Below, piece after piece: positions 2,537 to 18,449 of a DNA stretch of 32,000 nt (positions within the stretch are counted from its first letter, which is position 1; every line of letters begins with the position of its first letter). Source of the stretch: Candidatus Saccharibacteria bacterium oral taxon 488 (GTDB lineage: Bacteria; Patescibacteriota; Saccharimonadia; Saccharimonadales; Saccharimonadaceae); NCBI GenBank assembly GCA_010202845.1, contig CP047921.1, forward strand, positions 630,001-662,000, in the 5' to 3' direction. The notes under the pieces are model-generated. The model saw nothing but the letters and a program-made list of their open reading frames with translations. It was not told the origin of the DNA and did no database searches. The position numbers and the translations under genes are program-made.

Positions 2537-3014
2537 GCAAACCCCCTCTCTTATCAGTTTCAAAACGAACATCAGCGGCTGGGTCGTCTATAATTTGGCG
2601 GGTTTTGATGGTTGATGCGTCATCCAATTTTTCTAGCTTTTGCGGCTTTTTGGTTGGTTGATTTGTGGCTTCTTCGTCTTCAGGTGGAGCACTTTTATAT
2701 TCATCACGAAACGCAGTAGTGTTTTTATTGAACAGATAATATTTTGGTCGCAAATTGTAACGCAGTACCGTCACCAGCCAAAGCGCAATGATTTTACCCC
2801 TAACACGAACCGACAAAACTCCACAAATCATCAAACTTAACGTCATCAAAACGTATTTATAAAGCGCGCCGTTCATAACCGGCGGCAGCAGCGCGAAAAC
2901 TCCCGCGCTAAAGAAAACAGGAATCATCAAGAGCACGATTTGTGAAAAACCGAGCTTGCCGATAATCCGATCTTCTACGGTAGTAACCTGCGCAGGAACG
3001 ACTGTCGTTTTCAT
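2508..3014 (-). CDS. PrgI/VirB3-like small T4SS membrane protein
   Basis: N-terminal 'VPAQVTTVEDRIIGKLGFSQIVLL' followed by two hydrophobic helices. It sits directly upstream of VirB4 and has an ATGA start/stop overlap with the upstream gene (3011-3014). Confidence 0.6.
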   Translation of the reverse strand: MKTTVVPAQVTTVEDRIIGKLGFSQIVLLMIPVFFSAGVFALLPPVMNGALYKYVLMTLSLMICGVLSVRVRGKIIALWLVTVLRYNLRPKYYLFNKNTTAFRDEYKSAPPEDEEATNQPTKKPQKLEKLDDASTIKTRQIIDDPAADVRFETDKRGGLHVRFTKVKR

Positions 3015-4528
3015 GATTTTTTACCTCGCTGTTTAGTCGATTTTATTTTCGATCCGGCACGGTAAGTTGTGCCGGTTTTGAGTGGTTTTGATTCGGGCAT
3101 ATTAACAACGGTTAGATTATTTTTGCTGCGCGGATTTACGGCGTAGGTGATTTCCGCGTCGCCTTTTTTGTTTAGATAACTCACTTTCATCGGCGACTTT
3201 GTTTGACGCGCCACCGTTTCGAGAGTCGAGTGAACCCGGGCTTTTTTGGCGGCGTGAGTGGTATTCTTCACGCGCTGGGTCGTTTTGTGCACCACTTTCG
3301 AGCCAGTGCCTGTCATGTAGCTGACGCCGTTCATAAACTGACCACCCAGCTTCTTTAGATTGCGCGCACCCATACTAACGAAACTAAATTGTATCATCAC
3401 GCCTTGAACTTTTAATAAAGTCAGAATAGTTGCTATGCCTGCTACCATCGCCATCAAGGTGTCGGGAAATGCATTGTTACTGCCGCTAGTCGCCATACCA
3501 GAAAACAGCGACGACGCTAATTGCAATATAACCACATGGACAAACAAAACGAAAATTGTTGATAAGAACGTCTTCATCGAAGTTTCGGCAAAATCACGAA
3601 ACCCCGGCACTAACCACAACATACTCACCAGCGGTGACAGGACAGTGCCGATAAATAAAGTGATTAAACGCATAACATAATACACCAACAATATGACCGA
3701 GCAAATCAGAAAAGCCACCATGATCAGCAGCGCCGCCACGCCCTGACCAGACGTTTTTTCGACAACTTTGATGAGCGTACTCCAGACGGTCGATGCACCC
3801 GAAATTTGGTTGACTGCCGAGATGAGAACGTTGGATAAACTAATGATGCCATCAATCAAAAATATCGAGGTGTTCATCAGCAAAAATATCAGCGCTATGC
3901 GTGGCAGTAGGTGCTTGACTTCAACTTCGTCAAAACCAAAACTCGACGCGCTCATGACCTGAAATCCGACTAGCGCCACAACTAAAATTAACAGCACATC
4001 AGCGATGCCGACAATCGCTAGCCATAGATTAAACACGACTTTATTGCTCGCCATCAACGGCGTCGATTTGGTGAAAAATTCTAGCGCGCTCAAAAATGGC
4101 GAGGCTATGGCGTTAATAATCGACGACAATAGCCCCGTCACAGCTTTGATGATCATCTCGATCAAGCCGTTGTTTTCTGATTTGGGCGTGACTGCCTGTA
4201 GGTTCGGTAGGTTTGCGTCATTTGGATTTTGCACCGCTTGATATGAACCGTTCAAAATAGAAACTATTGTCACAGCGGCTAGTACGACGACTAACCCAAT
4301 CGCTGCTTTTTTAGCGATGTTTTTAGCGTGCTCCATGCGGTCTGGTTTGCCACTGCTGGTCATGTAAATATAGCCAGCATGCGCCAAAAAGAAAGCGCAA
4401 GCCAGCGACGCGATGCCCGATAAGATTTTGGCTGTCGGCAAAACATAATCACGCACGGTTTTTATGGCGCCAGCCGTATCAGCAAATAACACTAAATTGC
4501 TAGTGAAAATATCGACAAAGTCGAACAT
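3011..4528 (-). CDS. VirB6/TrbL/PrgH-like polytopic T4SS membrane protein with an N-terminal VirB2-like module
   Basis: 505 aa with multiple long hydrophobic helices and a basic C-terminal tail. It lies between the VirB2-like and PrgI/VirB4 genes. The call rests on architecture and context only. Confidence 0.55.
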   Translation of the reverse strand: MFDFVDIFTSNLVLFADTAGAIKTVRDYVLPTAKILSGIASLACAFFLAHAGYIYMTSSGKPDRMEHAKNIAKKAAIGLVVVLAAVTIVSILNGSYQAVQNPNDANLPNLQAVTPKSENNGLIEMIIKAVTGLLSSIINAIASPFLSALEFFTKSTPLMASNKVVFNLWLAIVGIADVLLILVVALVGFQVMSASSFGFDEVEVKHLLPRIALIFLLMNTSIFLIDGIISLSNVLISAVNQISGASTVWSTLIKVVEKTSGQGVAALLIMVAFLICSVILLVYYVMRLITLFIGTVLSPLVSMLWLVPGFRDFAETSMKTFLSTIFVLFVHVVILQLASSLFSGMATSGSNNAFPDTLMAMVAGIATILTLLKVQGVMIQFSFVSMGARNLKKLGGQFMNGVSYMTGTGSKVVHKTTQRVKNTTHAAKKARVHSTLETVARQTKSPMKVSYLNKKGDAEITYAVNPRSKNNLTVVNMPESKPLKTGTTYRAGSKIKSTKQRGKKS

Positions 4529-4534
4529 TAGCGT

Positions 4535-4876
4535 TTAACCTCCGAAGGCTTGTCGCGCTAAAGTCGTTACGATGTTCGCTAATACAAACGCCGCAATAAC
4601 AATCGCTAGACCAATTGCCGACCATGTGATAGTGCGCTTTGCTTTGTCTAGTTGCTCAGGATTTCCCGAGCTAGTGATATAGGTAAAGCCGCCAGCAACA
4701 AAAAAGCCGGTTGCTACCAGACCGGCTAGTCCCGCCACCACTTGGATAACGCTTCGTATAAAATTCTCGACATTGCTGACACCAGCGGGTGCAGCTAGGG
4801 CTACGTTCGCCAACACAAATGGCGCTCCAACTGAGATAAATATTGCCGCCAAACAATATGTTTTTCTTGACACCAT
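4535..4876 (-). CDS. TrbC/VirB2-like T4SS pilin-type protein
   Basis: 113 aa. Signal-like N-terminus 'AIFISVGAPFVLANVALA', then two hydrophobic helices separated by 'TSSGNPEQLDKAKR'. An AAGGGAG SD lies upstream, and this is the first gene of the operon. Confidence 0.55.
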   Translation of the reverse strand: MVSRKTYCLAAIFISVGAPFVLANVALAAPAGVSNVENFIRSVIQVVAGLAGLVATGFFVAGGFTYITSSGNPEQLDKAKRTITWSAIGLAIVIAAFVLANIVTTLARQAFGG

Positions 4877-5133
4877 AAACTCCCTTTCACCAGAGCGTAA
4901 ACTTTGTGTTTACCTCCGTTATTTTTACGTTAGCAGGCATTAATTTACTTGGCAAGACGGCACTTGAAAGTCTACTATGGTGGTATCAGTGTGTTAGTTT
5001 CCGGGAGGTTTGTTAAATCTATAGAGGTACAGCTATGTTCTGCTTTGAGCCGAGAATTAAATTAACGAACTTACTAAAAAATATATTTTGTCGCCAACTT
5101 TACACTAATAAAAATTACAAGTAAACTAAAAAC

Positions 5134-5442
5134 ATGAGCAAACTAAAATCTGAAAAGATCGTCATATCTTCGCCGCTATCGTTTAGCGGCTCGGCAAAGC
5201 GCATTTGGAAAATTACGGATGTGGACAATCCAGTGGTGAAAGCGTTGCTTAGTTTGGTGGCTGCCGCGCTCATTATGTTCGCTTGGGTTTTCGTGGCGTT
5301 TTGGTACGTGCTGATTTACGTTGTTTTTGGAATTTTGTTCATTCCGTATCGGCTACTGCGGCGAAGTAGCCGCAAGCAAAAGCAAGCAAAATTGCGGCAT
5401 CGTGAAGTGCTGGAGGCAATAGAGAAAAATCGTAACTTATAA
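5134..5442 (+). CDS. Small membrane protein (two TM helices, basic tail), function unknown
   Basis: 'LLSLVAAALIMFAWVFVAFWYVLIYVVFGILFIPY' followed by 'RRSSRKQKQAKLRHR'. TTTACA-17-TAAACT boxes are present, with the ATG 6 nt after the -10. Confidence 0.5.
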   Translation: MSKLKSEKIVISSPLSFSGSAKRIWKITDVDNPVVKALLSLVAAALIMFAWVFVAFWYVLIYVVFGILFIPYRLLRRSSRKQKQAKLRHREVLEAIEKNRNL

Positions 5443-5823
5443 CCGCCGCAACACGGTCACGCGTTTCTTATCGTAAGTTTTCTGGGATTTGTGCAGAACT
5501 TCAGAATGAGAATCAAACCAAATAGTTATATCATCCGTTAGCTTTGACAACTCGAGACCGGTTTTCGTTAATTTATATTCAACTCGCGGCGGAATCGTCG
5601 GATAGAAAAAGCGCCGGACGATGCCGGCGCGTTCTAGCTGCTTGAGGTGCTCGGTGAGCACTTTTTGAGTCACCCCCGGAAGAGAGCGGTGTAGCGCAGA
5701 ATAGCGCTTAGTCTCAGTGCCAAGCGAAAGAATGATCGCGATAGTCCATTTGCGAAACAGCAGGCTTGTCATGAAATCGCGCGAATCGGCATACTGTTTT
5801 TTGGATACAGTAGTTTTTGTCAT
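5437..5823 (-). CDS. HxlR-family winged-helix transcriptional regulator
   Basis: 'FRKWTIAIILSLGTETKRYSALHRSLPGVTQKVLTEHLKQLERAGIVRRFFYPTIPPRVEYKLTKTG' is the HxlR signature. Start moved to ATG 5823 (GGAGGT SD 4 nt upstream). The longer ORF to 5940 crosses a palindrome and has no SD. Confidence 0.8.
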   Translation of the reverse strand: MTKTTVSKKQYADSRDFMTSLLFRKWTIAIILSLGTETKRYSALHRSLPGVTQKVLTEHLKQLERAGIVRRFFYPTIPPRVEYKLTKTGLELSKLTDDITIWFDSHSEVLHKSQKTYDKKRVTVLRRL

Positions 5824-5877
5824 GGTTACCTCCCGTTGATGTAAATGTATATTTGGCGTAAAAATAGCTGATGAAAA

Positions 5878-5907
5878 AATATCTCTGGAGGGCCCTCCAG
5901 AGATATT
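5878..5907. repeat. 30-bp perfect palindrome AATATCTCTGGAGGG|CCCTCCAGAGATATT, a hairpin or operator
   Basis: Read directly. Both arms are fully complementary with no loop. On the minus strand a T6 run follows it (plus-strand AAAAAA at 5874-5879), giving the geometry of an intrinsic terminator for minus-strand transcripts. Confidence 0.9.
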
Positions 5908-6050
5908 ATGTGGCCCATCCTTAGTTATGTATTGTAACATCGCGCAACCAAGATGTCAAATAACAACTATTATTACACCTCCTTGTCTATTGTTGGTGTT
6001 GTCGCGCACTGGCTTTATATCTGATCTTATTTGTAGTACAATAATCCTAT

Positions 6051-7274
6051 ATGAATGATCGTACGCATAAAATCAATACAAACGAAGGTCTTATTGATGA
6101 GGCATTATCCCGTTCAGTAGCTGAAATTCTACCAAGCAAGAGAGAACTTAAAAAAGAACTACAAAGCGGCAAGCGATTGACGTTTTATCTAGGCATTGAT
6201 CCTACCGCCAGCTACGTTCACCTCGGACATTCGACAAACTATTTAATGCTTGAGCGCTTTCACGCCCTAGGTCATCGAATTATTGTATTGATTGGTGATT
6301 TTACGGCAATGATCGGTGATCCAAGTGATAAAACTTCAATGCGCGTGCAGCTAACGCGCGAACAGGTACTTGATAACTTAAAAACATTTAAACAACAGAT
6401 CGGAAAAATCCTAAACTTTAATGATGCCGATAATCCTATAGAATTTAAATTTAACTCAGAATGGCTTTCAAAGCTAACGTTTGAGGACTCTGTCGAGCTG
6501 GCCTCAAATTTTACGGTTCAGCAGATGCTTGAACGGGATGCATTCAAAAAAAGGGTTGCTGAGGAGAAGCCCCTTTTCGTGCATGAATTCTTCTATCCAT
6601 TAATGCAAGGGTATGATTCTGTGGCCCTAGATGTTGACGTGGAAGTGGGCGGCACTGACCAAACTTTCAATATGCTTGCTGGGCGTACACTGCTGAAACG
6701 TTACAAACAGAAGGAAAAGTTTGTAATTACGACAACTCTATTAGTTAATCCAGATACGGGCGAGAAGTTGATGAGTAAGAGCCTTGGTACTGGTGTAGGA
6801 TTGGACCTTGGCGCCAAAGAGATGTTCTTCAAGATCATGCAAATATCAGACGCCGGCATCTATCAGTGTTTCGTGGACTGTACGCGTCTATCAATGGGCG
6901 AGATTGCCGAAATAAAAAAGCGGCTTGATAGCAATGAAAATCCCCGTGACATTAAAAAAGAGCTTGCTCGAGAAGTGGTGTCTATGTACCACGGCAGTGA
7001 GGCTGCTTTTGATGCCGAAAAGCGATGGGTATCTGAAGTTAGCCATAAGAATTTAGCTCAAGATATTCATACTGTTCAAATTGGTTCTGACGAGTCAATT
7101 GTTGATTTGATAGCTCGTCTAGATATAGTTAAAAGTCGCGGCGAAGCCAGGCGTTTAATCAAGCAAAATGCTGTTAAAATTAACAACAATAGAGTAAACA
7201 ATGAGAACGCAACCCTTATTAATGGCGACATCTTGCATGTTGGGAAAAAGCATGCCTTTAAAGTGTCTGTATAG
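6051..7274 (+). CDS. tyrS: Tyrosyl-tRNA synthetase (canonical-looking copy)
   Basis: HIGH motif 'HLGH', 'GDFTAMIGDPSDK', 'YPLMQGYD', 'GGTDQTFN', KMSKS-type 'LMSKS' and a C-terminal S4-like 'SRGEARRLIKQNAVKINN'. A TACAAT box ends 8 nt before the ATG. Confidence 0.9.
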   Translation: MNDRTHKINTNEGLIDEALSRSVAEILPSKRELKKELQSGKRLTFYLGIDPTASYVHLGHSTNYLMLERFHALGHRIIVLIGDFTAMIGDPSDKTSMRVQLTREQVLDNLKTFKQQIGKILNFNDADNPIEFKFNSEWLSKLTFEDSVELASNFTVQQMLERDAFKKRVAEEKPLFVHEFFYPLMQGYDSVALDVDVEVGGTDQTFNMLAGRTLLKRYKQKEKFVITTTLLVNPDTGEKLMSKSLGTGVGLDLGAKEMFFKIMQISDAGIYQCFVDCTRLSMGEIAEIKKRLDSNENPRDIKKELAREVVSMYHGSEAAFDAEKRWVSEVSHKNLAQDIHTVQIGSDESIVDLIARLDIVKSRGEARRLIKQNAVKINNNRVNNENATLINGDILHVGKKHAFKVSV

Positions 7275-7284
7275 GTAGCTCATT

Positions 7285-7842
7285 ATGAATGAGACTGACA
7301 TCATAAATCTGCTTCGCAGAGACAATGAGTTTATGGAGGTGGCTAGAGGTATAAATTCACAAGTACCACCCGATTGTAGTTGGTGTATATTTTCTGGTTT
7401 CGTGCGCAATAAAGTGTGGGACTATATCCATGGCAATACCACTCCTACTAGAGCATCGGATATTGATGTCGCCCTCTATATGCCAGGCGACAATACGATG
7501 GCGATAAACGTCAAGCAGAAGCTAGAAGAGTTATATCCGACCTATAGTTGGGATGTTTCGAACTTCGCCTATAGCCATACTGAAAACAACGACAGCCCTT
7601 ACGTGAATTTGATCGACGGGTTGAGTAAAGAGCTCGAGACGATCACAAGTGTTGGTTTAACTCTTCGCTCAGACGGCTCTCTAGTAATAATCGCCCCTCA
7701 CGACATTGGTGATCTTGTTAAATGTATTATTCGTCCTACGCCTATCATCTATGCAAATCCAGAAAAACGACAGCTGATCGTTGATCGTATATCAAGAAAA
7801 CGCTTGCTTGAAAAGTGGCCAAAGCTACAGGTTATTATATAG
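7285..7842 (+). CDS. Nucleotidyltransferase-family protein (NTP_transf_6/DUF925-like)
   Basis: 'WCIFSGFVRNKVWDYIHG...SDIDVALY', 'WDVSNFAYSH', 'IRPTP' and 'KWPKLQV' match my recollection of the PF06042 pattern. Confidence 0.55.
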   Translation: MNETDIINLLRRDNEFMEVARGINSQVPPDCSWCIFSGFVRNKVWDYIHGNTTPTRASDIDVALYMPGDNTMAINVKQKLEELYPTYSWDVSNFAYSHTENNDSPYVNLIDGLSKELETITSVGLTLRSDGSLVIIAPHDIGDLVKCIIRPTPIIYANPEKRQLIVDRISRKRLLEKWPKLQVII

Positions 7843-9505
7843 AATTTTCGGTATCAAAAATTTTCTTGGCGTTAATTATGTAATCTATCAAATAGTTAAT
7901 GGTCTCTACAGAGCAGTTCACTCCAAGTAGAACTATACGAAATGCTACAACTGGTTTACCATTGTGGTTATAAAATGATGCCGAGGATTTGCTGAAGGCT
8001 ATCTTTGGGTTTTTTCCTTCACGATCAACAAACCATTCGTAAAAGTTGCTGGTGTATTCTGTATTTGCCGCTAATATGCTGTCATCATATAGTTCCTTAT
8101 GGTGTTCGTTCTGTACGTCGGAACCTGTAACTATGGAACGTAAGAATATGTCTGTGGTCGCGGAGTTTTTATTTTCAATAATCATACCAGCAGCATTAAT
8201 ATCTTTCTCGCGATCAACAAATGCTTCGCGCATCTCAAGTGCATGCCCCAACAGGACCTGATAACCCTCTTTGCCGATAGTTTTTAGCGTTGCCCACGTT
8301 GCGACTATATTGGCGACAGATCTTGATGTTTCAATAGTGTATATACCAGGATTGTATTCATTTTCATCATGAAACAGTGGTGTCATAATATCTTTTTGAC
8401 GCTTCAAAAAATTAAAATCATCTTTATTCTTTAGAATAACCATGCTTGAATTATAGGGCGTGTAGCCTGTCTTGTGAAAATCTACTCCAAGCGAATCAGC
8501 AAAGCAGAACTTTCTCGCCATGTTGGCGTTGTGCTGCGCGCCCTTGAGGACTCGTACACTAAAACCGAGAGGGTTCTTATCAAAATCGTAATCTATAAAA
8601 TTTAGCCACACCCAGCCCAGGACGCTATCAACATGTATGTGCGGCGTGTAGCTTAGGCTATATTCTTTAATTAGTTGTGAACGAAGTTTATATATCTCTT
8701 CTACATCATCCATACCCATGCTGGATGTGGTTCCGCCTACAGCCTCAATGCAGGCGATCTTTTTTCCGCTATCAAGCGCTCGTCGACACACTTTTTCAAG
8801 ATCTGAAAGATCAGTTGTCTGATCAATATTTGTCTTTACTTTCAGATAATTATTCTGACCAATGCCTGTCCAGTTTGCTGAAGTTTGCTGACTATAATGT
8901 GATGCTGCGTTACCTATTACTACAGTATCATTGTCAATTACACCCTCCAATGCATGTTTTGGTTTAGCCTTGGCTAGTCCTATCTTTACTGCGTATAGGT
9001 TTGTGCCTGTTCCTCCAAAAGTAAATACACCTGATGCTTTTGTAGGGTCCATTCCGGCCATCTTAGCAATAGCTGACGCACAAGCTAATTCATCCTTGAG
9101 AGCCTCGCCAGCATCTTCTCCGGTAACCGCATTACCCATATATAACGACGTTGCTACGTAAGCTGCCAAATAAACAAAGTTTGGCTGTGGAATAATATTT
9201 TTTACCATTAAGGGACTGTGTGCCTTGACTGAGCGCTGCATCTCATTGGCTACTTGTTCGACAGTAGTGCTGTGAGAAAAGTTATAACGCTCAGGTATTG
9301 CAGCTGAGCTCATAACGTCGGTTATGGAAGTGTCTGAATCCGAAGGGTAAATTGGACCGTCACCTTGTCGTGCAATCATTGCCGCTACGGCGTTTTCAAC
9401 TAGTGTTATAAGCTTACTGCTGTTGTCTCCGTTTTCGCGTAGAAATAAAGACTCTTGCATGTCTGATAAAATGTCCTGGTATCTATTTGTCATGATTTTA
9501 ACCAT
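7835..9505 (-). CDS. Group II PLP-dependent amino-acid decarboxylase (tyrosine/aromatic decarboxylase-like)
   Basis: 'FTFGGTGTNLYAVKIG', 'HIHVDSVLGW' and the Schiff-base lysine motif 'DFHKTGYTPY'. The start is uncertain (GTG 9535, ATG 9505 or ATG 9493). Confidence 0.8.
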   Translation of the reverse strand: MVKIMTNRYQDILSDMQESLFLRENGDNSSKLITLVENAVAAMIARQGDGPIYPSDSDTSITDVMSSAAIPERYNFSHSTTVEQVANEMQRSVKAHSPLMVKNIIPQPNFVYLAAYVATSLYMGNAVTGEDAGEALKDELACASAIAKMAGMDPTKASGVFTFGGTGTNLYAVKIGLAKAKPKHALEGVIDNDTVVIGNAASHYSQQTSANWTGIGQNNYLKVKTNIDQTTDLSDLEKVCRRALDSGKKIACIEAVGGTTSSMGMDDVEEIYKLRSQLIKEYSLSYTPHIHVDSVLGWVWLNFIDYDFDKNPLGFSVRVLKGAQHNANMARKFCFADSLGVDFHKTGYTPYNSSMVILKNKDDFNFLKRQKDIMTPLFHDENEYNPGIYTIETSRSVANIVATWATLKTIGKEGYQVLLGHALEMREAFVDREKDINAAGMIIENKNSATTDIFLRSIVTGSDVQNEHHKELYDDSILAANTEYTSNFYEWFVDREGKNPKIAFSKSSASFYNHNGKPVVAFRIVLLGVNCSVETINYLIDYIINAKKIFDTENSI

Positions 9506-9593
9506 TAGTTTCTTAATACTATCTAATAATACCACACTGTTATCGTTCTGATGTAGTCAAGCTAATTGTTTACTTTTATGATATAACTATACC

Positions 9594-10334
9594 ATGGTTT
9601 CCTTTTTAAGTTATAATGTTGGCGGTGCACAGCAGTACGACCATGTGCTGGCAATTGCCAGGCTACTCCATACAATAAATACATCTATTGTCTGTTTGCA
9701 AGAAGCTAAATGGGCAAATGATGAATCGTTTGTAAACGATTTTGTCAAAAAATCAGGCTATAACAACTGTCGTATATGTCTTTCGTCTCGCACAGACAAC
9801 CACTCAATCGTTCTTTCTAATCTTCCCGTACTAGGAATGATTCCATTCAACCAAATGGCAAATTCCGGCATTATAGTTGATATAATGGCGAATATGCCAG
9901 TACGTGTCGCGGCTCTTCATCTTGCTCCCTCACCCGAGCAACAACGTGTTATCGAGCTAAATTCTATCCTGGGATACCTAAGCAATGATATGAATGTCGT
10001 AATGGCGGGCGACTTTAATGCGATCGCACCCAATGAGCATGCCCCAGTTCTAGGTTTGTCTAGCTCTGCTAAGCCAGAGTCTGTAAAACATGACGCAATC
10101 CAACTACTTATTAATTCCGGTTTTCATGATATCGGGAGAGAACATACTGTCAGCCCCATAGCCACGGTACCTCTCTCTGCCGATAGGGGTGTTACGTATC
10201 AAAACCTTCGACTAGACTATTTTTTCGTTAATACCAAGCTTGCTCCATTAGTTCGTTTATACCGTGTTATTGACACGTCAAAAACTCAAAATCTATCCGA
10301 CCATCTCCCTGTTTTTATGCAGCTAGGCGATTGA
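9594..10334 (+). CDS. Endonuclease/exonuclease/phosphatase (EEP) family protein
   Basis: 'VCLQEAKW', 'MAGDFNAI' and the C-terminal 'LSDHLPVFMQL' motif. TGATATAAC ends 6 nt before the ATG. Confidence 0.8.
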   Translation: MVSFLSYNVGGAQQYDHVLAIARLLHTINTSIVCLQEAKWANDESFVNDFVKKSGYNNCRICLSSRTDNHSIVLSNLPVLGMIPFNQMANSGIIVDIMANMPVRVAALHLAPSPEQQRVIELNSILGYLSNDMNVVMAGDFNAIAPNEHAPVLGLSSSAKPESVKHDAIQLLINSGFHDIGREHTVSPIATVPLSADRGVTYQNLRLDYFFVNTKLAPLVRLYRVIDTSKTQNLSDHLPVFMQLGD

Positions 10335-10359
10335 CGTAGTGCGGTATTTATATTACAAT
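10331..10359 (+). promoter_or_regulatory. Sigma70-type promoter TTGACG-17-TACAAT for the TyrRS paralog; implies a leaderless mRNA
   Basis: Hexamers at 10331-10336 and 10354-10359 with a 17-nt spacer. The ATG at 10366 lies 6 nt after the -10. Confidence 0.55.
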
Positions 10360-10365
10360 CGGACT

Positions 10366-11616
10366 ATGAGTTTTAGTGAGAAGTGGTTTAATCGTAGCAA
10401 TGAATCTCTTGAGGGTATTTCAACTGATGAATTCATCGGTTACGTTCAACCGAAAACACAAGAAGCAATAACAATGGATGGCATACGTGATCAACTTGAC
10501 TCCGGGCATCCTTTGAATGTTAAGTTTGGCACTGACCCAACTGGGCCAGATTTACACCTAGGTCATGTTGTTCCAATTCGTGTTCTTGATTTGTTTAGTC
10601 GTGCGGGTCATAATATTGACCTTGTATTTGGTGACTTTACAGCAAAGGTCGGTGACCCTAGTGGACGATCTAATGAGCGCCCTTTACTTTCTGATTCAAC
10701 AATCTCTGAAAACGTTTCGACTTTCCGTGATCAAGTAGATAAATATTTCGATACACACACCTCAAATGTAAAAGTTTCCAATAATAGTGCCTGGCTTGAT
10801 GAAATGTCACTATCTGACGTCTTTGAATACTTACAGGAAACGAATTTAAGTGAGGCTATGCAGCGTCGTGATTTCCGCAAGCGCATACTAGCTGGCAAGG
10901 CTATCAGTTTAGCAGAAGCGTTTTATCCAACAATGATGGGTATCGACTCAGTTGAACTCAAAACAGACATTGAGATTGGCGGAATTGACCAGCTATTAAA
11001 CTTTCAACAAACACGTAAGGTTCAACGTAACCAAGGTCAAGTTCCAGAAGATGTTATTATGACTCCAATTCTTGAAGGAACGTCTGGAGGTGGTGTAAAA
11101 ATGAGTAAGTCTCTTGGTAACTACGTACCTCTCAACGCTACGCCAGATGAAGTATATGGCAAGATGATGTCTATTCCTGATGATATCGTATTGAACTATA
11201 TAACAGCTTTTGCGCCCGTGCATACTGACGAGGTTTCCGGGCTGAAGCAAAGCATCGAATCTAGACCACTTGAGATGAAGAAACAACTGGCAACTTATTT
11301 AGCCGCCTTGTCAATTTCTAATATGGATGATGGTCTTGCCGCGAGAGAGCGGTTTGAGCGGCGCTTTGCAAGAAAAGAGTTTGCCGAGGATGATATGGAG
11401 AAACTTGTGAGCGGATCTGCTTTAATTGATTCACTTACCGCGACTGGTAAATATAAGTCGCGTAATGAAATTCGTCGGTTAGCAAAACAGGGTGGAATTA
11501 AGCTCGACGGTACATCTCTTTCAGAAGACGAGGTTATGACGACTACTCCCCCTATCGGATCTATTGTTACTGTTGGCAAGCGAACTATTTTTCGTATTGC
11601 CAAGTCCGAGGAATGA
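10366..11616 (+). CDS. Divergent tyrosyl-tRNA-synthetase paralog with an altered amino-acid pocket
   Basis: 'HLGH', 'GDFTAKVGDPSGR', 'GGIDQLLN', exact 'KMSKS' and S4-like 'SRNEIRRLAKQGGIKLDG'. However, it has 'KFGTDPT' and 'YPTMMGID' where TyrRS has Y...DPT and Y..LQ.YD. Confidence 0.85.
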   Translation: MSFSEKWFNRSNESLEGISTDEFIGYVQPKTQEAITMDGIRDQLDSGHPLNVKFGTDPTGPDLHLGHVVPIRVLDLFSRAGHNIDLVFGDFTAKVGDPSGRSNERPLLSDSTISENVSTFRDQVDKYFDTHTSNVKVSNNSAWLDEMSLSDVFEYLQETNLSEAMQRRDFRKRILAGKAISLAEAFYPTMMGIDSVELKTDIEIGGIDQLLNFQQTRKVQRNQGQVPEDVIMTPILEGTSGGGVKMSKSLGNYVPLNATPDEVYGKMMSIPDDIVLNYITAFAPVHTDEVSGLKQSIESRPLEMKKQLATYLAALSISNMDDGLAARERFERRFARKEFAEDDMEKLVSGSALIDSLTATGKYKSRNEIRRLAKQGGIKLDGTSLSEDEVMTTTPPIGSIVTVGKRTIFRIAKSEE

Positions 11617-11619
11617 TTG

Positions 11620-12501
11620 ATGGAGTTTACGCACCTAACGAAGCGACAGAATGAGGAGTCTATTGCCCCAGAAACTATTGACATTAGCTTAACGGGACGT
11701 TGCCAACTTGATTGTGCGTGGTGTTGGGGTGAAAAGCATACTATAGGTGTTAATCATGAAGCTGATGATTGGAACAATCTTCTTAACAATTTTTCATCTG
11801 AAGGCACCTCCCACGTTGTATTTACCGGAGGTGAACCTCTAATGGTTCCTTTTTTGCCAGATGTAGCGAAACATGCAAAGAATATTGGATTACGCACTAC
11901 TCTTTCGACCAACGGCATATTGTTGCCTAAACGCCATAAATCTATTATGCCGCACATTGATGACTTAGGATTACCTCTTGACGGTCCAACCAGTGGTGTC
12001 AATAAAAATATGCGTAAGGGTCGTATAGATAACTTCCTGAAAGTTATAGAAAGTGCAATGCTGGTCCAGGAAGAATATCCAGACACCTCGCTTACGATTC
12101 GTACTGTTATTGCCCGACCAAATATCAATTCTGTACCAGATATCCCTGAAGTTCTTGAACGGGAGGGGGTCGACCTTAGTAGATTGCGCTATAAAATGTA
12201 TCAAGTGGAACCGATTGGACCTCGCGCTACCGAAACAGCTACTGATTACTGGATGGTTGATGAGGCAGAGTGTTTAGAGGTTGCTAATCAAATCTCTCAA
12301 CGCTACCCAAATCTGCAACACACCCTTCAGCTTTATCGAAACACATCTGGAAGATACTATCAGATAATGCCTCAAGGTAACGCCTATGGAACATATATTG
12401 ATAGCAAAGGTACTCCGCATATGGTAGAGTTGGGGAATCCAATGACAGATTTTCGCAATGCTCTCGGCATGATAGCTACTCGCTACGCGTGCCTGTATTG
12501 A
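11620..12501 (+). CDS. Radical SAM enzyme (compact; single 4Fe-4S CX3CX2C motif)
   Basis: 'GRCQLDCAWCWG', 'VVFTGGEPLM' and 'LSTNG'. A GAGGAA SD lies upstream. The gene starts 4 nt after the TyrRS-paralog stop. Confidence 0.85.
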   Translation: MEFTHLTKRQNEESIAPETIDISLTGRCQLDCAWCWGEKHTIGVNHEADDWNNLLNNFSSEGTSHVVFTGGEPLMVPFLPDVAKHAKNIGLRTTLSTNGILLPKRHKSIMPHIDDLGLPLDGPTSGVNKNMRKGRIDNFLKVIESAMLVQEEYPDTSLTIRTVIARPNINSVPDIPEVLEREGVDLSRLRYKMYQVEPIGPRATETATDYWMVDEAECLEVANQISQRYPNLQHTLQLYRNTSGRYYQIMPQGNAYGTYIDSKGTPHMVELGNPMTDFRNALGMIATRYACLY

Positions 12502-13538
12502 TTCATAGCTTGACGCATATGATCATTGTAATCACGAATCTGCTTATATGTTTCGCTGAATCGTGGGTAAGTATCAAGATACGTCCAAATATCTTTGGAA
12601 TATATGGAAAGTTGACTCGTTAGTTCAGGATTTCGAGGCAGAGGTAATATCCAAAAATGCACACTCGCTGGCTTAAGATATTTTTCGTCGTGGTAAATAT
12701 GCGAGGTCTCGACCCCTAATTCAGCAACGTTTTCCTTAACTCGCTTAGCAATAATCATGCAATGATCAAAGTATTCTTGCGGCATCTTATCAATACTGCG
12801 ATAATGTTTTTTTGGACTAACTATATAGAACCCAGGTATTGCATATTTTGCGTCTTGTCGAACTACTAAATCCTCGTCTTCATACACTGGAGCCAGAACG
12901 TCATCTATTTCATTTGTAAATTTATCTAAAAACTCACCCTTTGACATAGTGTCATCACATAAAAAGGCTTGGAAGTTCTTTGCGCCACCAATACAAACAT
13001 AGTACTTTTTTCCTACCGGTGCCATAGGTAGTTCTAGTTCATCGTCAATTTCAAGGATTTCGTCAATGGTAGTCTCGTGCCATTCCTGGTCATGCTTTTT
13101 GTCGCCACTGGGTTGATAAGGAATTGCGTCATAGCCCCTTGTTTGATCCTCAAAACACCGTTCAGTAGCATTGTCATATTTTATCACATCTTGCAAGTCA
13201 TGGGCGTTATAGCTTTTAATATACGATTCAATGTGCGGCTGATACACTTCTACGTCAAAACGACTTGCCAATCTACCGATATGAAGCGGCAATGTAATAC
13301 TTGTCACGGGTTGTTCTGTATACTCTTCAACATAAAGTCCACACAATGCTATATCAAGACTTTTTAATCCAATGCGTAATTTACGTTGATAAGACGCTAG
13401 CAATCTTACCTCATCGTCAGATAGATCCGTAAATCGCTCTACGCCGCTCACGGGATTAATCGCATACATACCAGGAACATAGCTGTCTTGCGCCTGTTGT
13501 ATGGTAAAATGCTCACCCAGTTTCCTCGTATTACGCAA
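12483..13538 (-). CDS. Tandem degenerate HIT-like (GalT/Apa-like architecture) protein
   Basis: The C-terminal half 'IPGFYIVSPKKHYRSIDKM...ASVHFWILPL' resembles a HIT domain with only the central His of HxHxH. The N-terminal half 'VPGMYAINPVSGVERFTDL...ITLPLHIGRL' repeats the pattern. Confidence 0.45.
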   Translation of the reverse strand: MRNTRKLGEHFTIQQAQDSYVPGMYAINPVSGVERFTDLSDDEVRLLASYQRKLRIGLKSLDIALCGLYVEEYTEQPVTSITLPLHIGRLASRFDVEVYQPHIESYIKSYNAHDLQDVIKYDNATERCFEDQTRGYDAIPYQPSGDKKHDQEWHETTIDEILEIDDELELPMAPVGKKYYVCIGGAKNFQAFLCDDTMSKGEFLDKFTNEIDDVLAPVYEDEDLVVRQDAKYAIPGFYIVSPKKHYRSIDKMPQEYFDHCMIIAKRVKENVAELGVETSHIYHDEKYLKPASVHFWILPLPRNPELTSQLSIYSKDIWTYLDTYPRFSETYKQIRDYNDHMRQAMNQYRHA

Positions 13539-14799
13539 TTTTGTGGTTTCCTTTCTTTTGCAGCTTTACAATTATTTCCGCTGCTTTTGTTTGCAGATCA
13601 GATTCTGACTTTATATTGGTTGCATCGTGTATTATCGTAGCGATATGTTCACGTATATTATTGACATCCAGTTTAGACCTAGTGTATAGAGATATTAAGC
13701 TTGAGGGCGATTGTTCTACGATTGTGTTTATTGCCGCCAAAGGAGTCTGCTGGTGTGAGGCGCTCGCTATGGCATTAGTAGATAAGTTATCATCCATAAG
13801 CGCAAGTAATCCATTCATTACATAATGGTCTATTTTTTCACGATCACCGCTAGACCAACATTGCCTGACAAGTATTGACTCAAAGCGATTGATCACTCGG
13901 TACCTCGCTTCATTACGGCGTCGTACTACACATGCTGAAATGTCATGAAGTATGTCAATTTCGGTTGGATATATATCTGCAATAAGATGTCCTAGATCGT
14001 TTGGGCGAATGCAGTGTTTTTGCATTGATCGTACGGGCATCTCTGCGTCGAATACGATCTGTTCAATAATATTTCGTAAATCGCTATTATCAGTAAGATA
14101 TCCTGTCATATCTTTGAATGTTTGCTCATAACGAACAAGTTGGGGTTCTTCTAACTTATATTCAATTATCTTACTCAATAGTTCTTCAAGGATATGTCTA
14201 TCAAATAAATAGCTCCAGTTTAGCAAGAAGTTCGTGTACCACAAGCGATTGAGTCGAACTGGCATATTTAGCTTGCTAAGCACAACATCCTCGAGGTCTA
14301 GCAAATACATCTCGTTATTAACCTCTATAATATTGCGCGGCAGGAACCCTGAGTGTACAATGCCGCGACCCATTAGGAATTCAATAATTTCAATGTATTG
14401 TTTGGCTTCCAGCTTAGGAAAGGCTGCCTCATAGGATAATGTATTTAAGTCCTTACCTATAAATGGCAAAACTAAGTACGCTTGTTTAATATTTCCCACC
14501 ACATCAATTATATCAGGCACTACTACTCGTAGAGTCATCCCGCAGATATTTGTGCCGTCGATAATCTTACTGGTGCGAGCTGACTTATTTAACTCATCCC
14601 TAGCCTTGATTCGATCGCATCGTTTTGCTATATAGCATATACCGTTATATTCGAATTTACGAAAACGATCTTCTACGTCGTAAAACCAAACACCAGGATT
14701 ATATTGTTCATTATTATTGCTATAGGCTTGTTGTGTACGTTCTTCTAGGGTTAAGGCACGGTTCATGTAAATACGCTTGCTTTTCTTATGGGTGACCAT
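13531..14799 (-). CDS. Protein-kinase-like fold protein lacking the catalytic Asp, with a C-terminal helical domain
   Basis: 'CYIAKR' (beta3 Lys), 'GIVHSGFLPRNII' (HxD..N loop with Asp replaced by Gly) and 'YLLDLEDV' (DFG-equivalent Asp). A TATAAT box ends 7 nt before the ATG at 14799. Confidence 0.45.
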   Translation of the reverse strand: MVTHKKSKRIYMNRALTLEERTQQAYSNNNEQYNPGVWFYDVEDRFRKFEYNGICYIAKRCDRIKARDELNKSARTSKIIDGTNICGMTLRVVVPDIIDVVGNIKQAYLVLPFIGKDLNTLSYEAAFPKLEAKQYIEIIEFLMGRGIVHSGFLPRNIIEVNNEMYLLDLEDVVLSKLNMPVRLNRLWYTNFLLNWSYLFDRHILEELLSKIIEYKLEEPQLVRYEQTFKDMTGYLTDNSDLRNIIEQIVFDAEMPVRSMQKHCIRPNDLGHLIADIYPTEIDILHDISACVVRRRNEARYRVINRFESILVRQCWSSGDREKIDHYVMNGLLALMDDNLSTNAIASASHQQTPLAAINTIVEQSPSSLISLYTRSKLDVNNIREHIATIIHDATNIKSESDLQTKAAEIIVKLQKKGNHKIA

Positions 14800-14849
14800 A
14801 TGGTTTATTATATGGTATTATTTTTTTCTAATATTATCAATAGACAGTA

Positions 14850-15200
14850 GGGGGCGGTCTCATTCAGCCCTTAACTTCTATACTAAATATAGCAACGTCC
14901 ATACTTACCCCGCTCACTCGACATACGCCTTGCTGGCGCAGTCAAGATGAGCGGATGTAAGAATGAACGAGCTTATGTTGGAAGCTGGCAAGATTAGTTG
15001 ATGGATTGTTATCTTATTTCACAAAAAGACAAGCCAGCTAGCGCGTACTGCGCTGGCGCACAAAACGCGCCACCTGTCTATCATTTGCGAAATAAGCCTA
15101 GTCCTAGAAGCTACGCGGCGGCTTTCGTGCGACCATTGCAAGCTCGCCGGAGGGCGCGCCTTGCAACCATCGCACGGCCGATTGACATATACGTATCCTT
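14850..15200. other. GC-rich, hairpin-dense non-coding spacer: candidate structured RNA, attenuator or oriT
   Basis: No convincing ORF. Nested hairpins include CCGCTCA(14909-14915)/TGAGCGG(14948-14954) enclosing GCGCC-AGCAA-GGCGT (minus-strand reading), and TTGCAAG..CGCC-CTCC-GGCG..CTTGCAA around 15135-15165. AT-rich promoter DNA flanks it. Confidence 0.4.
15020..15057 (-). terminator. Intrinsic terminator on the minus strand downstream of the Replic_Relax-like gene
   Basis: The minus strand reads GCCAGCGC-AGTACGC-GC(TA)GCTGGC followed by TTGTCTTTTTGTG. Its 5' arm shares 4 nt with an upstream hairpin TGGCGC-GTTTTGT-GCGCCA (plus 15054-15072). Confidence 0.5.
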
Positions 15201-15208
15201 AGATTATT

Positions 15209-16015
15209 TTACAACTCATCTAATGAAAGAAGCTCACCAGACTCGTCAATATTCGACCAAATAGCAGAACTCTCACGCACCAAGTTCTCAGCCGTCGCTG
15301 TATATACCTCAACTTCATCATCCAAGTCAAACCGACTGCGCACGGCATGAGCAGCGCGCCGCAAGCGGTTTTCTGTGGCTGGATTTTCCAGCAAAAATAA
15401 GAACCTCGGTAGGTTGCTGTTCGTCGCGTCCCAGCCGCCATCATCGAAAAATTCCATATAATTTACCAGACGGCGATTGATGGCGCTAGGCGGCATGTCT
15501 TTAGGTATGACATCAAAGAAAAATCGCCGCAACCCATCGGCTGTTTTGAGCGACAAAAATGCGTCGGGCGGATTAGCCGGAAAATAGCTATAAAGCGCCA
15601 TTTCGCGCCGCAAAAATACTTTTAGCGGTGGATATTGGTGCTGTAGTTTATTGGTGCACGAATACACATTAACTACATGATTAACGAATGATTGACCAAC
15701 GACTTTGTCGCGGTAGCTCGCCTTGATGATGGCGTTGGTAACGCGTTCGCTGCCGTAAATCAATTGCAGTTGCTTAAGTCCTTTTGGTGTCAAATAATAC
15801 GCTGCCGGCACACCCCGCAATTTATAGCTTTTGTCATATCGTCTAGCCACAAAACCATGTTTCATCAGTACATTCAACTTTTCAAACAAATTTGAACCCG
15901 ACTTAATACCCAGACTATCTGCCAACAATTGACGACTACCGAACCGATATTTGTATAACGTTTCCAGGATGTCTATCTGTCCCTGCTTGAGCGCTGAACG
16001 TTTGTCTATTTTCAT
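15209..16015 (-). CDS. Replication-relaxation (Replic_Relax, PF13814-like) family protein
   Basis: N-terminal wHTH pattern 'GQIDILETLYKYRFGSRQLLADSLG...LNVLMKHGFVARR...AAYYLTPKGLKQL', plus 'PDAFLSL' and 'FFDVIP' later in the protein. Start moved to ATG 16015 (GAAAGG 6 nt upstream). Confidence 0.55.
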   Translation of the reverse strand: MKIDKRSALKQGQIDILETLYKYRFGSRQLLADSLGIKSGSNLFEKLNVLMKHGFVARRYDKSYKLRGVPAAYYLTPKGLKQLQLIYGSERVTNAIIKASYRDKVVGQSFVNHVVNVYSCTNKLQHQYPPLKVFLRREMALYSYFPANPPDAFLSLKTADGLRRFFFDVIPKDMPPSAINRRLVNYMEFFDDGGWDATNSNLPRFLFLLENPATENRLRRAAHAVRSRFDLDDEVEVYTATAENLVRESSAIWSNIDESGELLSLDEL

Positions 16016-16156
16016 TATCAGCCTTTCACGATTCCTTTCTAGTATATTTATATAGAAAGAAGAGAAAAATAGCAATATATAACAGTATTTTTATGGATGA
16101 ATTATACTGTATATCGATATTCGGTATATTTTACATCATAAAATTGCTAAAAACTA

Positions 16157-16185
16157 TTGAATATTTGTAGTACAAATAGTACAAT
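16157..16185 (+). promoter_or_regulatory. Promoter TTGAAT-17-TACAAT whose spacer is a perfect 7-1-7 palindrome ATTTGTAgTACAAAT (operator-like)
   Basis: Hexamers at 16157-16162 and 16180-16185; palindrome at 16163-16177. It lies upstream of the RHH gene. Confidence 0.5.
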
Positions 16186-16290
16186 TTAAGTAGAGGTTTA
16201 ATCATAAAACTGGCTCGTTAATAACACGAAAAACTAGGCTTCAAACAGTAGCGCTTTTTGGTTATCATCCCGTGTAGTATACTGGGGTTA

Positions 16291-16503
16291 ATGAGCCAAT
16301 CAAGAATTCAGCTACAAATCGATACATCAAAAGAAGTGCGCAACCGAGCCAAAGCCGTTGCCTATAGCCAAGGCATGAGCCTGACCGAATTGGTGCTTAA
16401 GGCGCTAGCGACGGTTGGCGACAAGGAGCTGAAACAGCTGATTGAAAAGGATTTGCAGGAGCGCTCTGGACGCGGGCGTCCGCAGCAGTTCAAGTCTAGT
16501 TGA
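16291..16503 (+). CDS. Ribbon-helix-helix (CopG/Arc-like) DNA-binding protein with a C-terminal AT-hook (GRGRP)
   Basis: 'SRIQLQIDTSKEVRNRAKAVAYSQGMSLTELVLKALA' fits a beta-alpha-alpha RHH pattern, and the C-terminus reads 'RSGRGRPQQ'. TGTAGTATACT ends 7 nt before the ATG at 16291. Confidence 0.55.
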   Translation: MSQSRIQLQIDTSKEVRNRAKAVAYSQGMSLTELVLKALATVGDKELKQLIEKDLQERSGRGRPQQFKSS

Positions 16504-16532
16504 TGTTATGACGAGTCGCGACAGGAGGGATT

Positions 16533-16715
16533 ATGGCGCGACCAAAAGGAAGTAAAAATAAACCAAAAGCCCCGCTGATGAAGCAATTTTCGTTCACGAC
16601 CGAGCAGCGGATTAGGCTGGTGGCAAATTTAATCGTCGAGAAAATCACCGAAGATGGCGCGTTTGCCAAAAAGCTAATTACGATACTGGAGGATGATAAA
16701 AATGTCTCCAAATAA
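16533..16715 (+). CDS. Small DNA-binding-like protein with an HMGA-type AT-hook N-terminus; possible recombination directionality factor
   Basis: 'MARPKGSKNKPK' nearly matches the HMGA AT-hook core 'GRPKGSKNK'. An AGGAGGGA SD lies upstream. Its 3' end overlaps the recombinase start by 14 nt. Confidence 0.45.
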   Translation: MARPKGSKNKPKAPLMKQFSFTTEQRIRLVANLIVEKITEDGAFAKKLITILEDDKNVSK

Positions 16716-18438: not shown

Positions 18439-18449
18439 ACGATGAGGCC
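18375..18449 (-). tRNA. tRNA-Glu (anticodon TTC), CCA encoded
   Basis: The reverse complement GGCCTCATCGTCTAACGGTCAGGACACCAGGTTTTCATCCTGGCAATCGGAGTTCGATTCTCCGTGAGGTCACCA folds as a cloverleaf with a 7-bp acceptor stem, anticodon loop TTTTCAT and a GGAGTTCGATTCTCC T-arm. Confidence 0.9.

Follow-up and report, generated by a model that had tools for sequence, protein, structure and literature searches.

Introduction

Extra copies of aminoacyl-tRNA synthetase (aaRS) genes serve for self-resistance or for supply in the case of mupirocin (IleRS), agrocin 84 (LeuRS), indolmycin (TrpRS), valanimycin (SerRS) and albomycin (SerRS). The last of these, encoded by the abm cluster of Streptomyces, is a seryl-thionucleoside inhibitor of SerRS, and a resistant copy of SerRS is found within the cluster itself. 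The microcin C system includes the major facilitator superfamily (MFS) protein MccC, MccE (a decarboxylase domain that depends on pyridoxal phosphate (PLP), linked to GNAT), the S66 peptidase MccF and the HIT protein MccH, and in the tdc tyramine operon of lactic acid bacteria (tyrS-tdcA-tyrP-nhaC) the gene for a tyrosyl-tRNA synthetase (TyrRS) precedes that for a decarboxylase. Here we analyze a stretch of 32,000 nt from Candidatus Saccharibacteria bacterium oral taxon 488 (CP047921.1, positions 630,001-662,000 of the forward strand; hereafter the window, in which all coordinates are given unless another locus is named). It carries a cassette of eight genes, two of them encoding a TyrRS, which an earlier note on the same DNA had proposed to be an undescribed multi-gene system tied to TyrRS.

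The cassette and its recurrence across phyla

According to the open reading frame (ORF) map and the Pfam and NCBIfam scans, the region 6051-14799 holds eight closely packed genes, and not nine as had been counted before; the ORF positions and family assignments given at that time were confirmed. On the plus strand lie tyrS1 (6051-7274; TIGR00234, with S4 and SYY_C domains) and, starting 10 nt past it, a gene for a nucleotidyltransferase-fold protein of family NTP_transf_6 (7285-7842; PF06042, 117 bits in Pfam). The next gene, on the minus strand, encodes a group II PLP-dependent decarboxylase-like enzyme (7835-9535; PF00282; 556-566 aa). It is followed on the plus strand by one operon consisting of the genes for an EEP-family phosphoesterase (9594-10334; PF03372, 46 bits), for the second synthetase, tyrS2 (10339-11616; TIGR00234), and for a radical SAM enzyme (11617-12501; PF04055, 59 bits). 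The two remaining genes are again found on the minus strand and specify a tandem-HIT, GalT-like protein of 351 aa (12483-13538), of which Pfam HIT covers residues 218-273 only, and a protein of 422 aa with an Asp-less protein-kinase-like fold and a helical C-terminal domain (13531-14799), for which neither Pfam nor NCBIfam gave a match. The ORF coordinates also bear out the gene overlaps at 7835-7842, 12483-12501 and 13531-13538. The genes for the decarboxylase, the radical SAM enzyme, the tandem-HIT protein and the kinase fold belong to the core of the cassette.

To establish its conservation, the neighbourhoods of distant homologues were inspected, the GTDB species genomes were scanned with the alignment of the HIT family, and the window proteins were compared by BLASTP to all ORFs of the retrieved loci (given below as L plus a number). 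A core composed of the kinase fold, the N- and C-terminal HIT halves (HIT-N and HIT-C), the PLP decarboxylase, a phosphohydrolase and the radical SAM enzyme was found to recur at 22-68% identity. Of the 15 informative loci, 14 have a TyrRS gene within the cassette or next to it (the window, L019, L011, L013, L014, L021/L036, L037, L015, L022, L024, L027, L028, L029 and L038), the sole informative locus without a TyrRS within 8 kb being L017/L018/L023. The earlier note had let its proposal depend on co-localization in other genomes, and core and TyrRS were indeed found together across phyla: five to six core enzymes are inherited together with TyrRS. Among the carriers are a Saccharibacteria metagenome-assembled genome (MAG) in which all eight genes occur in a chromosomal setting (L011), other small-genome bacteria (L013, L014, L021/L036, L037), gut Alphaproteobacteria (L017, L022), Lachnospiraceae and Clostridia (L015, L028, L029), a member of the Muribaculaceae (L026) and 'Mycoplasma sp. 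CAG:472' together with a Clostridium-labelled MAG (L024, L027).

The composition of the cassette varies considerably between lineages. NTP_transf_6 is found only in the Saccharibacteria versions (the L011 orthologue being 46% identical), and outside the small-genome bacteria the slot of the EEP protein is taken by an HD-domain protein (L015, L017, L022, L027, L029), while the two halves of the HIT protein are separate genes in these other phyla. In the Simiaoa locus (L015) the radical SAM enzyme is fused to a nucleoside diphosphate kinase (NDK), and L024 and L027 have it joined to an additional HIT-C domain. In the distant alphaproteobacterial variant L038 (3279-12962 of that locus) a thiamine pyrophosphate (TPP) enzyme stands in for the PLP decarboxylase and a HAD protein for the phosphatase, next to HIT-C, the radical SAM enzyme, an alpha/beta hydrolase, an MFS protein, an aldo-keto reductase and TyrRS. 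The decarboxylation and phosphatase steps appear to be filled in L038 by unrelated enzyme families. Over the loci as a whole, the differences in gene order, in fusions and in the types of enzyme are such that the steps are preserved.

The variants also have partners of their own. Directly upstream of the kinase fold, three Bacteroidota and Firmicutes lineages have a Rel-like HD-SYNTH-TGS gene of about 470-480 aa (HD_4, RelA_SpoT and TGS domains), at 7311-8762 in L026, at 7338-8713 in L027 (as two ORFs) and at 5730-7163 in L029 (with the synthetase domain undetected). Further partners are an NT5C::HIT fusion, Nudix and nucleoside hydrolase; the Simiaoa locus has in addition a carrier protein, an AMP-binding enzyme and NTP_transf_5, and both alphaproteobacterial versions (L017, L022) adjoin an MFS gene and a convergent GNAT gene. 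The NDK and HIT fusions of the radical SAM enzyme, together with the NT5C, HD, Nudix and Rel-like partners, lend backing to the nucleotide chemistry that had been proposed for the system. Other genes were observed in the vicinity: DarT/NADAR and IS110 genes near the Simiaoa cassette, an S66 peptidase near that of L017, and, after the decarboxylase and in the same direction, genes for queuosine salvage (PF10343) and NIF3/DUF34 (L021 9069-10990, L036 12057-13939).

No model in Pfam, NCBIfam or PADLOC describes this set of genes and no paper on it was found in the literature on viperin, radical SAM, HIT, TyrRS, self-resistance, nucleoside antibiotics and Saccharibacteria, the one related publication being the preprint on the T4SS of Patescibacteria cited below. 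Considering also the co-occurrence across phyla, the proposal of a functional and undescribed multi-gene system tied to TyrRS was upheld.

The tyrosyl-tRNA synthetases

Both synthetases score well past the equivalog cutoff of TIGR00234 (113.8 bits), with 341.7 bits for tyrS1 and 257.5 bits for tyrS2, and their signature and tyrosine-pocket motifs are intact (HLGH, KLMSKS and YPLMQGYD in tyrS1; HLGH, KMSKS and YPTMMGID in tyrS2). The Q-to-M change in the tyrosine pocket of tyrS2 is found in 24 of 130 background TyrRS. The S4 and SYY_C domains of tyrS1 (32.3 and 36.5 bits) both pass their cutoffs, whereas S4 in tyrS2 reaches 18.3 bits and remains under the cutoff of 22.8.

Of the two TyrRS paralogs listed in the earlier note, one only proved to be divergent. 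Hundreds of Saccharibacteria TyrRS are 63-84% identical to tyrS1, and the gene for an 83%-identical relative has ordinary chromosomal surroundings, with no cassette, in a genome of 1.02 Mb. Therefore tyrS1 is lineage-typical, an ordinary and vertically inherited Saccharibacteria TyrRS (its dN/dS against L019 is 0.08). On the other hand, tyrS2 is a rare, divergent TyrRS paralog: it shares 30% identity with tyrS1 and 68% with the L011 copy, and its closest representatives of 50%-identity clusters are just 51, 49 and 46% identical.

Specialized copies are seen elsewhere too. In L024 and L027 two TyrRS genes adjoin each other just downstream of the cassette, of which the first, in-operon copy lacks a T-box and the second has a T-box leader (L024 16235-16425; L027 16303-16493). 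The cassette TyrRS of L013 (8689-9942), L021 (719-2023) and L036 (3665-4969) have HIGR in place of HIGH and KMSTT or KMSTS in place of KMSKS, variants that were seen in only 2-3 of the 130 background TyrRS. The cassette TyrRS of Simiaoa and of the Alphaproteobacteria are 62% identical across phyla. In all, the in-operon TyrRS is always a specialized paralog and every lineage has its own copy. The link between cassette and TyrRS is thus recurrent and is not explained by a single shared ancestral gene.

The enzymes of the cassette

Apart from the two TyrRS, no cassette gene reaches an NCBIfam equivalog cutoff for a housekeeping function. The radical SAM enzyme has its CxxxCxxC motif at residues 29-36 (CQLDCAWC). 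Its best NCBIfam match is viperin_w_prok (NF038283), at 64.8 bits versus a cutoff of 180, and the models for prokaryotic viperins (pVips) in PADLOC match it at 76 and 72 bits; none of the other cassette proteins matches a PADLOC model. Its relatives in the PDB include BlsE (40 bits), PqqE and viperin (24.7 bits). For the homologues in the other cassettes viperin_w_prok is likewise the best or near-best family, at 44-79 bits. By these scores the enzyme is viperin-like but not a viperin, and distantly related to viperin, MoaA and BlsE.

The decarboxylase retains the PLP-lysine motif 'DFHKTGY' and has aromatic amino-acid and diaminobutyrate decarboxylases as its best relatives in the PDB; it reaches no NCBIfam equivalog cutoff. 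It is 58-68% identical to its counterparts in the loci of small-genome bacteria and 31-33% identical to those in Alphaproteobacteria, Firmicutes and Bacteroidota. A tyramine operon of the tdc type was considered and rejected on two grounds: the decarboxylase scores 52.5 bits with TIGR03811 versus a cutoff of 905.3, and the TyrP antiporter is missing. In fact none of the eight window genes encodes a transporter, a tyrosine/tyramine antiporter included. The EEP protein has weak matches to ExoIII, and the sole solved relative of the NTP_transf_6 protein is 2LA3, an uncharacterized structure.

The kinase-fold and HIT families are both small, comprising 17 and 37 sequence clusters, respectively, both counts being among 5.8 billion. 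In the alignment of 17 kinase-fold sequences K59, E69, N156 and D168 are invariant, and an equally invariant G151 ('GFLPRN') occupies the position of the catalytic Asp of the HRD motif. A profile search against the PDB aligned rGFLPRN with RDLKPSN of p38 MAPK (E 7e-5), the AlphaFold2 model has a pLDDT of 90 and was matched by Foldseek to kinase domains, and three of the 17 members weakly match the APH family. The description as an Asp-less kinase fold was thereby corroborated. Class III lanthipeptide synthetases gave the top folds for the kinase domain; a reading as a system for a ribosomally made peptide with post-translational modifications (RiPP) was nevertheless rejected, given the low TM-scores and the lack of a convincing ORF for a precursor peptide.

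The tandem-HIT architecture was confirmed by a model with a pLDDT of 89, whose best folds are the two-half GalT and ADP-glucose phosphorylase. The top 14 Foldseek matches are GalT, uridylyltransferase and ADP-glucose phosphorylase (E 3e-5 to 2.5e-4, TM 0.42-0.49), and two-domain folds of the GalT type come ahead of any small HIT hydrolase. The family has a single invariant His, H294 in 'VHFWILP', and 'PFHIDRL' is present in the N-terminal half; an active-site motif HxHxQ or HxHxH is not present in the family alignment. Relatives have been annotated as Ap4A HIT hydrolases by JGI. A small HIT hydrolase of the MccH type, as had been suggested earlier, was rejected on account of the two-domain, GalT-like fold, and judging from the model the protein resembles a nucleotidyl transferase or phosphorylase of the GalT type.

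The mobile element that carries the cassette

A domain scan of the window revealed that the cassette is the cargo of an element with a type IV secretion system (T4SS), a Replic_Relax protein and a serine recombinase. The absence of phage and transposase genes had been noted correctly, but the fact that the island is the cargo of an element had been missed. To the left of the cargo, on the minus strand, are the T4SS genes for a VirB4/TraG-like ATPase, PrgI, TrbL/VirB6 and a pilin (124-4876). To the right follow the replication-relaxation (Replic_Relax) gene (15209-16075, minus strand; PF13814, 31.6 bits versus a cutoff of 25.3) and, at the right end of the element, a large serine recombinase (16693-18438, plus strand; domains Resolvase, Recombinase and Zn_ribbon_recom), whose 3' end abuts a tRNA-Glu(UUC) gene at the junction with the chromosome (18375-18449, minus strand). 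The left end of the element lies outside the window.

Human oral metagenome contigs were found with an identical HIT protein and the same gene order. The loci L001-L003 are 99.86% identical to 2483-18474 of the window, whereas beyond 18474 the homologous chromosomal genes share only 67% identity; in the comparison with L001-L004 the high identity stops 25 nt past the tRNA-Glu. A near-identical element between such dissimilar flanks, therefore, indicates that it was recently transferred horizontally and is shared at the same tRNA-Glu site among Saccharibacteria hosts that are clearly different. The T4SS, a relaxase-type gene and the recombinase in one block, the discrete boundary and the differing host backgrounds are the features of an integrative conjugative element (ICE). 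The cassette is a self-contained, horizontally mobile enzyme set, which is carried here by a conjugative-type element. Since the T4SS clusters of Patescibacteria usually lack relaxases, and a relaxase beside virB4 has been reported for few genomes of the Candidate Phyla Radiation (CPR) (bioRxiv 10.1101/2025.01.22.634366), the element is unusual among them. The plasmid and phage collections and IMG/VR were searched for members of the HIT family, without a match.

The block 5865-15524 is common to the window and L019, an oral Saccharibacteria MAG, at 96.5% identity. In L019 (1-10323, compared with 5865-18196 of the window) a deletion of about 2 kb removes the N-terminal parts of Replic_Relax and of the recombinase, and a 584-aa protein rich in Pro, Thr and Ser stands in place of the HxlR/T4SS side. 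The eight cargo genes are intact and free of indels, with dN/dS values of 0.07-0.34, and all eight are under purifying selection. By this comparison L019 looks like a decaying element in which the cargo has been retained.

The GC argument that had been put forward for an island is weak. The hand counts of single 60-nt lines (35, 32, 35, 50 and 67%) were correct but unrepresentative, and the drop in a windowed computation is modest: the cargo (5866-15524) has 41.5% GC, the flanking backbone of the element 44.7% and 45.8% (cargo versus backbone, Mann-Whitney p = 0.0015) and the chromosome beyond 18475 51.7%. The abrupt step is located near 18.47 kb, at the junction of element and chromosome, and not at the edges of the island where it had been placed.

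Two structured sequences border the cargo, both of which had been recognized earlier. A repeat search confirmed the perfect 30-bp palindrome at 5878-5907, at the left junction, between tyrS1 and a divergent gene for an HxlR-family regulator (5437-5823, minus strand; PF01638, 84 bits; 128 aa in L001-L008). It is flanked by the HxlR start and by a strong promoter-like site on the minus strand (5959-5931; TTGACA-17-TACAAT, with TG), is followed on that strand by a T-run, and could be an operator for HxlR or a leader hairpin. It also sits where the similarity to L019 stops (5865). On the other side, between the kinase-fold gene and Replic_Relax, folding confirmed a GC-rich structured spacer of 350 nt (14850-15200) that forms a number of long hairpins, with -158 kcal/mol for the minus strand (z = -7.3, equalled by 0 of 100 shuffles) and z = -4.8 for the plus strand. 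A repeat search in 14750-15300 returned no inverted repeat, although folding gives long imperfect hairpins there, and an Rfam search of the spacer returned no match. The spacer is about 95% conserved in L019 and is a candidate for an origin of transfer (oriT) or a structured RNA of the element.

Within the island of the window neither a tRNA gene nor a T-box leader was found; the tRNAs of the window are the tRNA-Glu at 18375 and four chromosomal ones, which form a cluster on both strands (His, Lys, Arg and Gly; 24773-25686). Three unrelated lineages have a tRNA-Glu(UUC) gene no more than a few kb from the cassette (L013 7532-7606, L022 18303-18377 and the window, 18375-18449), which may reflect integration of the island at tRNA-Glu. 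Directly outside the element the chromosome carries a gene for a surface protein of the DUF11/CLIPPER type (18526-19818), with a GC content of up to 0.58 and an AT skew of about 0.3 at 19001-20000; its counterpart in L001 has 535 aa versus 430 aa.

A functional interpretation

Tentatively, and with somewhat more doubt than confidence, we favour the reading that the compound made or processed by the cassette is a nucleotide or nucleoside related to tyrosine and modified in its sugar, and that a dedicated or resistant TyrRS belongs to the set. The radical SAM enzyme would alter the ribose of an NTP, a role suggested by its nearest relatives viperin, MoaA and BlsE, because these act on nucleotides or nucleosides, and the NDK fusions would supply the NTP. 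The GalT-like HIT protein would pass the resulting NMP via His294 to a phosphate- or amine-bearing acceptor, and the decarboxylase (the TPP decarboxylase in one distant variant) would provide a decarboxylated aromatic unit, for example tyramine or 4-hydroxyphenylacetaldehyde. The kinase fold would bind ATP and, as it is devoid of a general base, would probably phosphorylate a group that is already anionic, whereas the EEP, HD or HAD enzyme would remove phosphates. The product would then be similar to tyrosyl-adenylate or to a tyrosyl-nucleoside and have TyrRS as its target, with tyrS2 as the insensitive copy or as the supplier of Tyr-tRNA, and with the adjacent ordinary copy (tyrS1 here, the T-box-controlled copy in Firmicutes) as a buffer of the target. 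We infer this chemistry, including a tyrosyl- or aminoacyl-nucleotide as the product.

Several lines of comparative evidence are consistent with such a pathway. The neighbourhood is conserved with TyrRS in nearly all informative loci and in several phyla, and the MFS and GNAT genes beside the alphaproteobacterial versions, as well as the MFS gene of L038, would be genes of the export or immunity type. The non-orthologous replacements (EEP by HD by HAD, PLP decarboxylase by TPP enzyme) seem to keep the step. The specialized TyrRS, moreover, would by analogy fit the precedent of extra aaRSs in antibiotic clusters, and the rarity of the protein families and the near-identical element in a divergent host suggest an accessory, mobile character.

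Other observations weigh against this reading. The window cassette lacks an exporter, and the element bears both TyrRS genes, which a simple model with one resistant copy does not need. Several of the hosts are tiny-genome symbionts and not classical antibiotic producers, and in L014, L024 and L027 the cassette is located among housekeeping genes. With 65 bits the radical SAM enzyme falls far short of the 180 bits set as cutoff for the viperin family, and the best NCBIfam matches of the decarboxylase (PanP, MfnA, DABA decarboxylase and TDC) are all far under their cutoffs; only its adjacency to TyrRS suggests a link between this enzyme and tyrosine. In addition, the HIGR and KMSTS variants may imply that some cassette TyrRS are poor adenylating enzymes.

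The similarity to viperins brings to mind defence against phages or other elements, in which the viperin-like enzyme would produce a nucleotide that is toxic or terminates chains, its activation or detoxification would fall to the HIT, kinase-fold and phosphatase proteins, and the extra TyrRS would sustain translation or act as sensor or decoy. The fact that the only PADLOC matches are to pVip models and that viperin_w_prok is best or near-best for all cassette radical SAM enzymes is in line with this, as are the resemblance of the NDK fusion to known pVip-kinase fusions, the patchy distribution as cargo of a mobile element, and the DarT/NADAR and IS110 genes near the Simiaoa locus. Nevertheless, we consider defence unlikely. 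The viperin scores remain far under the curated cutoff and no other cassette protein matches PADLOC; neither a PLP decarboxylase nor a TyrRS is, to our knowledge, used by any defence system; members of the HIT family were not found in the phage, plasmid and IMG/VR collections; and the MFS, GNAT, carrier-protein and AMP-binding genes of the variants look biosynthetic.

We are equally sceptical of a physiological pathway, in which an alarmone or cofactor would couple tyrosine or the status of Tyr-tRNA to growth, be it through dinucleotides of the Ap4A type, with TyrRS as their source and the GalT-like HIT phosphorylase as the enzyme that cleaves them, or through (p)ppGpp-like compounds. Ap4A and ADP-glucose phosphorylases belong to the GalT branch of HIT. 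The cassette protein has its fold in that branch and its relatives are annotated as Ap4A HIT hydrolases by JGI. The Rel-like gene directly upstream of the kinase fold in L026, L027 and L029 can be viewed in the same light, and so can the Nudix, NDK and NT5C partners and the housekeeping context in L014, L024 and L027 with a T-box tyrS adjacent. However, the cassette is extremely rare and horizontally spread, unlike core regulatory metabolism, and this reading leaves the decarboxylase and the radical SAM enzyme without a function and does not suit the MFS/GNAT and carrier-protein/AMP-binding partners of the variants.

Modification or repair of tRNA-Tyr, at its 3' end or at a nucleoside, by the nucleotidyltransferase, EEP, kinase-fold and HIT proteins, with a dedicated TyrRS to charge the altered tRNA, is very improbable. 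It would agree with two full-length TyrRS with tRNA-binding S4-type domains (that of tyrS2 scoring under its cutoff), with the weak likeness of EEP to ExoIII, with the TGS domain of the Rel-like partner (TGS binds the CCA end) and with the queuosine-salvage gene after the decarboxylase in L021 and L036. Yet a tRNA gene was not found inside any examined cassette, the Pfam scan detected no RNA ligase or Pnkp/Hen1-type protein, and decarboxylase, MFS, GNAT, carrier-protein and AMP-binding genes do not suit the repair of RNA. Finally, although tyrS1 is of the ordinary lineage type and the GC shift is small, a chance juxtaposition of unrelated housekeeping or accessory genes in a low-GC patch is refuted, because lineages under at least six different labels share the set at 22-68% protein identity, with rearranged order, fusions and fissions, while its genes, all under purifying selection, meet no housekeeping equivalog cutoff except for the two TyrRS.

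Returning to the nucleotide pathway with its own TyrRS, a bolder version of it would be a new class of tyrosyl-adenylate-like or tyrosyl-nucleoside antimetabolite directed against TyrRS, with an insensitive TyrRS in each cassette and the pathway itself mobile. This is possible, though we regard it as doubtful. If true, it would be the first natural nucleotide-type inhibitor of TyrRS, and one originating from ultra-small oral symbionts and gut anaerobes instead of actinomycetes; TyrRS would join the short list of aaRSs for which a natural nucleotide-type inhibitor and a resistance paralog exist. It would also provide a first role for the families of the Asp-less kinase fold and the single-His, GalT-like HIT protein, extend viperin-like radical chemistry beyond the antiviral 3'-deoxy-3',4'-didehydro-NTPs (ddhNTPs), and mean that reduced-genome bacteria of the human mouth and gut exchange such chemistry on conjugative elements. 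Even without an antibiotic product, the cassette is short, has many natural variants and displays informative fusions and enzyme swaps, which makes it a clean experimental target.

Comparison with described systems

The element as a whole resembles the monoderm-type ICEs of Patescibacteria, with their MPF_FATA-like T4SS, in having VirB4, PrgI, TrbL, a pilin and a serine recombinase at a tRNA gene. It differs from these in the presence of Replic_Relax and in the occurrence of near-identical copies in divergent hosts.

Single genes of the cassette can be related to various described systems. With the pVips and their kinase fusions the radical SAM enzyme shares the best-scoring family, the CxxxCxxC motif and, in one variant, the fusion to NDK; however, it scores 44-79 bits against a cutoff of 180 and is set in a seven- to eight-gene cassette that has never been described for pVips. 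GalT, ADP-glucose phosphorylase and Ap4A phosphorylase, the GalT branch of the HIT superfamily, have the two-half-domain architecture in common with the cassette HIT protein and constitute its best fold matches, but the latter is only 8-11% identical, has a lone His in its C-terminal half ('VHFW') instead of HxHxQ, and is encoded by two genes in several phyla. The tdc operon also links a TyrRS gene to a group II PLP decarboxylase, whereas in the cassette five further enzymes are conserved.

Microcin C provides a comparable setting of aminoacyl-adenylate mimics, and in the alphaproteobacterial variants HIT, PLP decarboxylase, GNAT and MFS are likewise found together, with an S66 peptidase nearby in L017; MFS, GNAT and HIT proteins also serve for immunity in microcin C systems. 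In contrast to microcin C, the cassette has a radical SAM enzyme, a TyrRS and a two-domain, GalT-like HIT protein. Pfam detected no MccB/ThiF-type adenylyltransferase among the eight cassette proteins, and the small ORFs of the spacers are unconvincing as precursor peptides.

A parallel in overall design is offered by the albomycin cluster, which is likewise centred on a nucleoside, combines radical SAM and PLP enzymes and has an extra, divergent aaRS inside the cluster. In the window it is tyrS2, within the operon of EEP, tyrS2 and radical SAM genes, that represents such a divergent aaRS embedded in a cluster of co-conserved enzymes, as is characteristic of clusters for aaRS inhibitors. The differences are that the target proposed here is TyrRS, that the abm-type enzymes are not shared, that the hosts are symbionts and gut anaerobes, and that the kinase-fold and GalT-like HIT families are uncharacterized; in the literature searched no natural-product cluster with TyrRS as target was found. 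Thus, what is undescribed here is the enzyme set, the target, the hosts and two of the protein families, whereas the kind of system, an enzyme cluster that brings its own aaRS paralog, is a known one.

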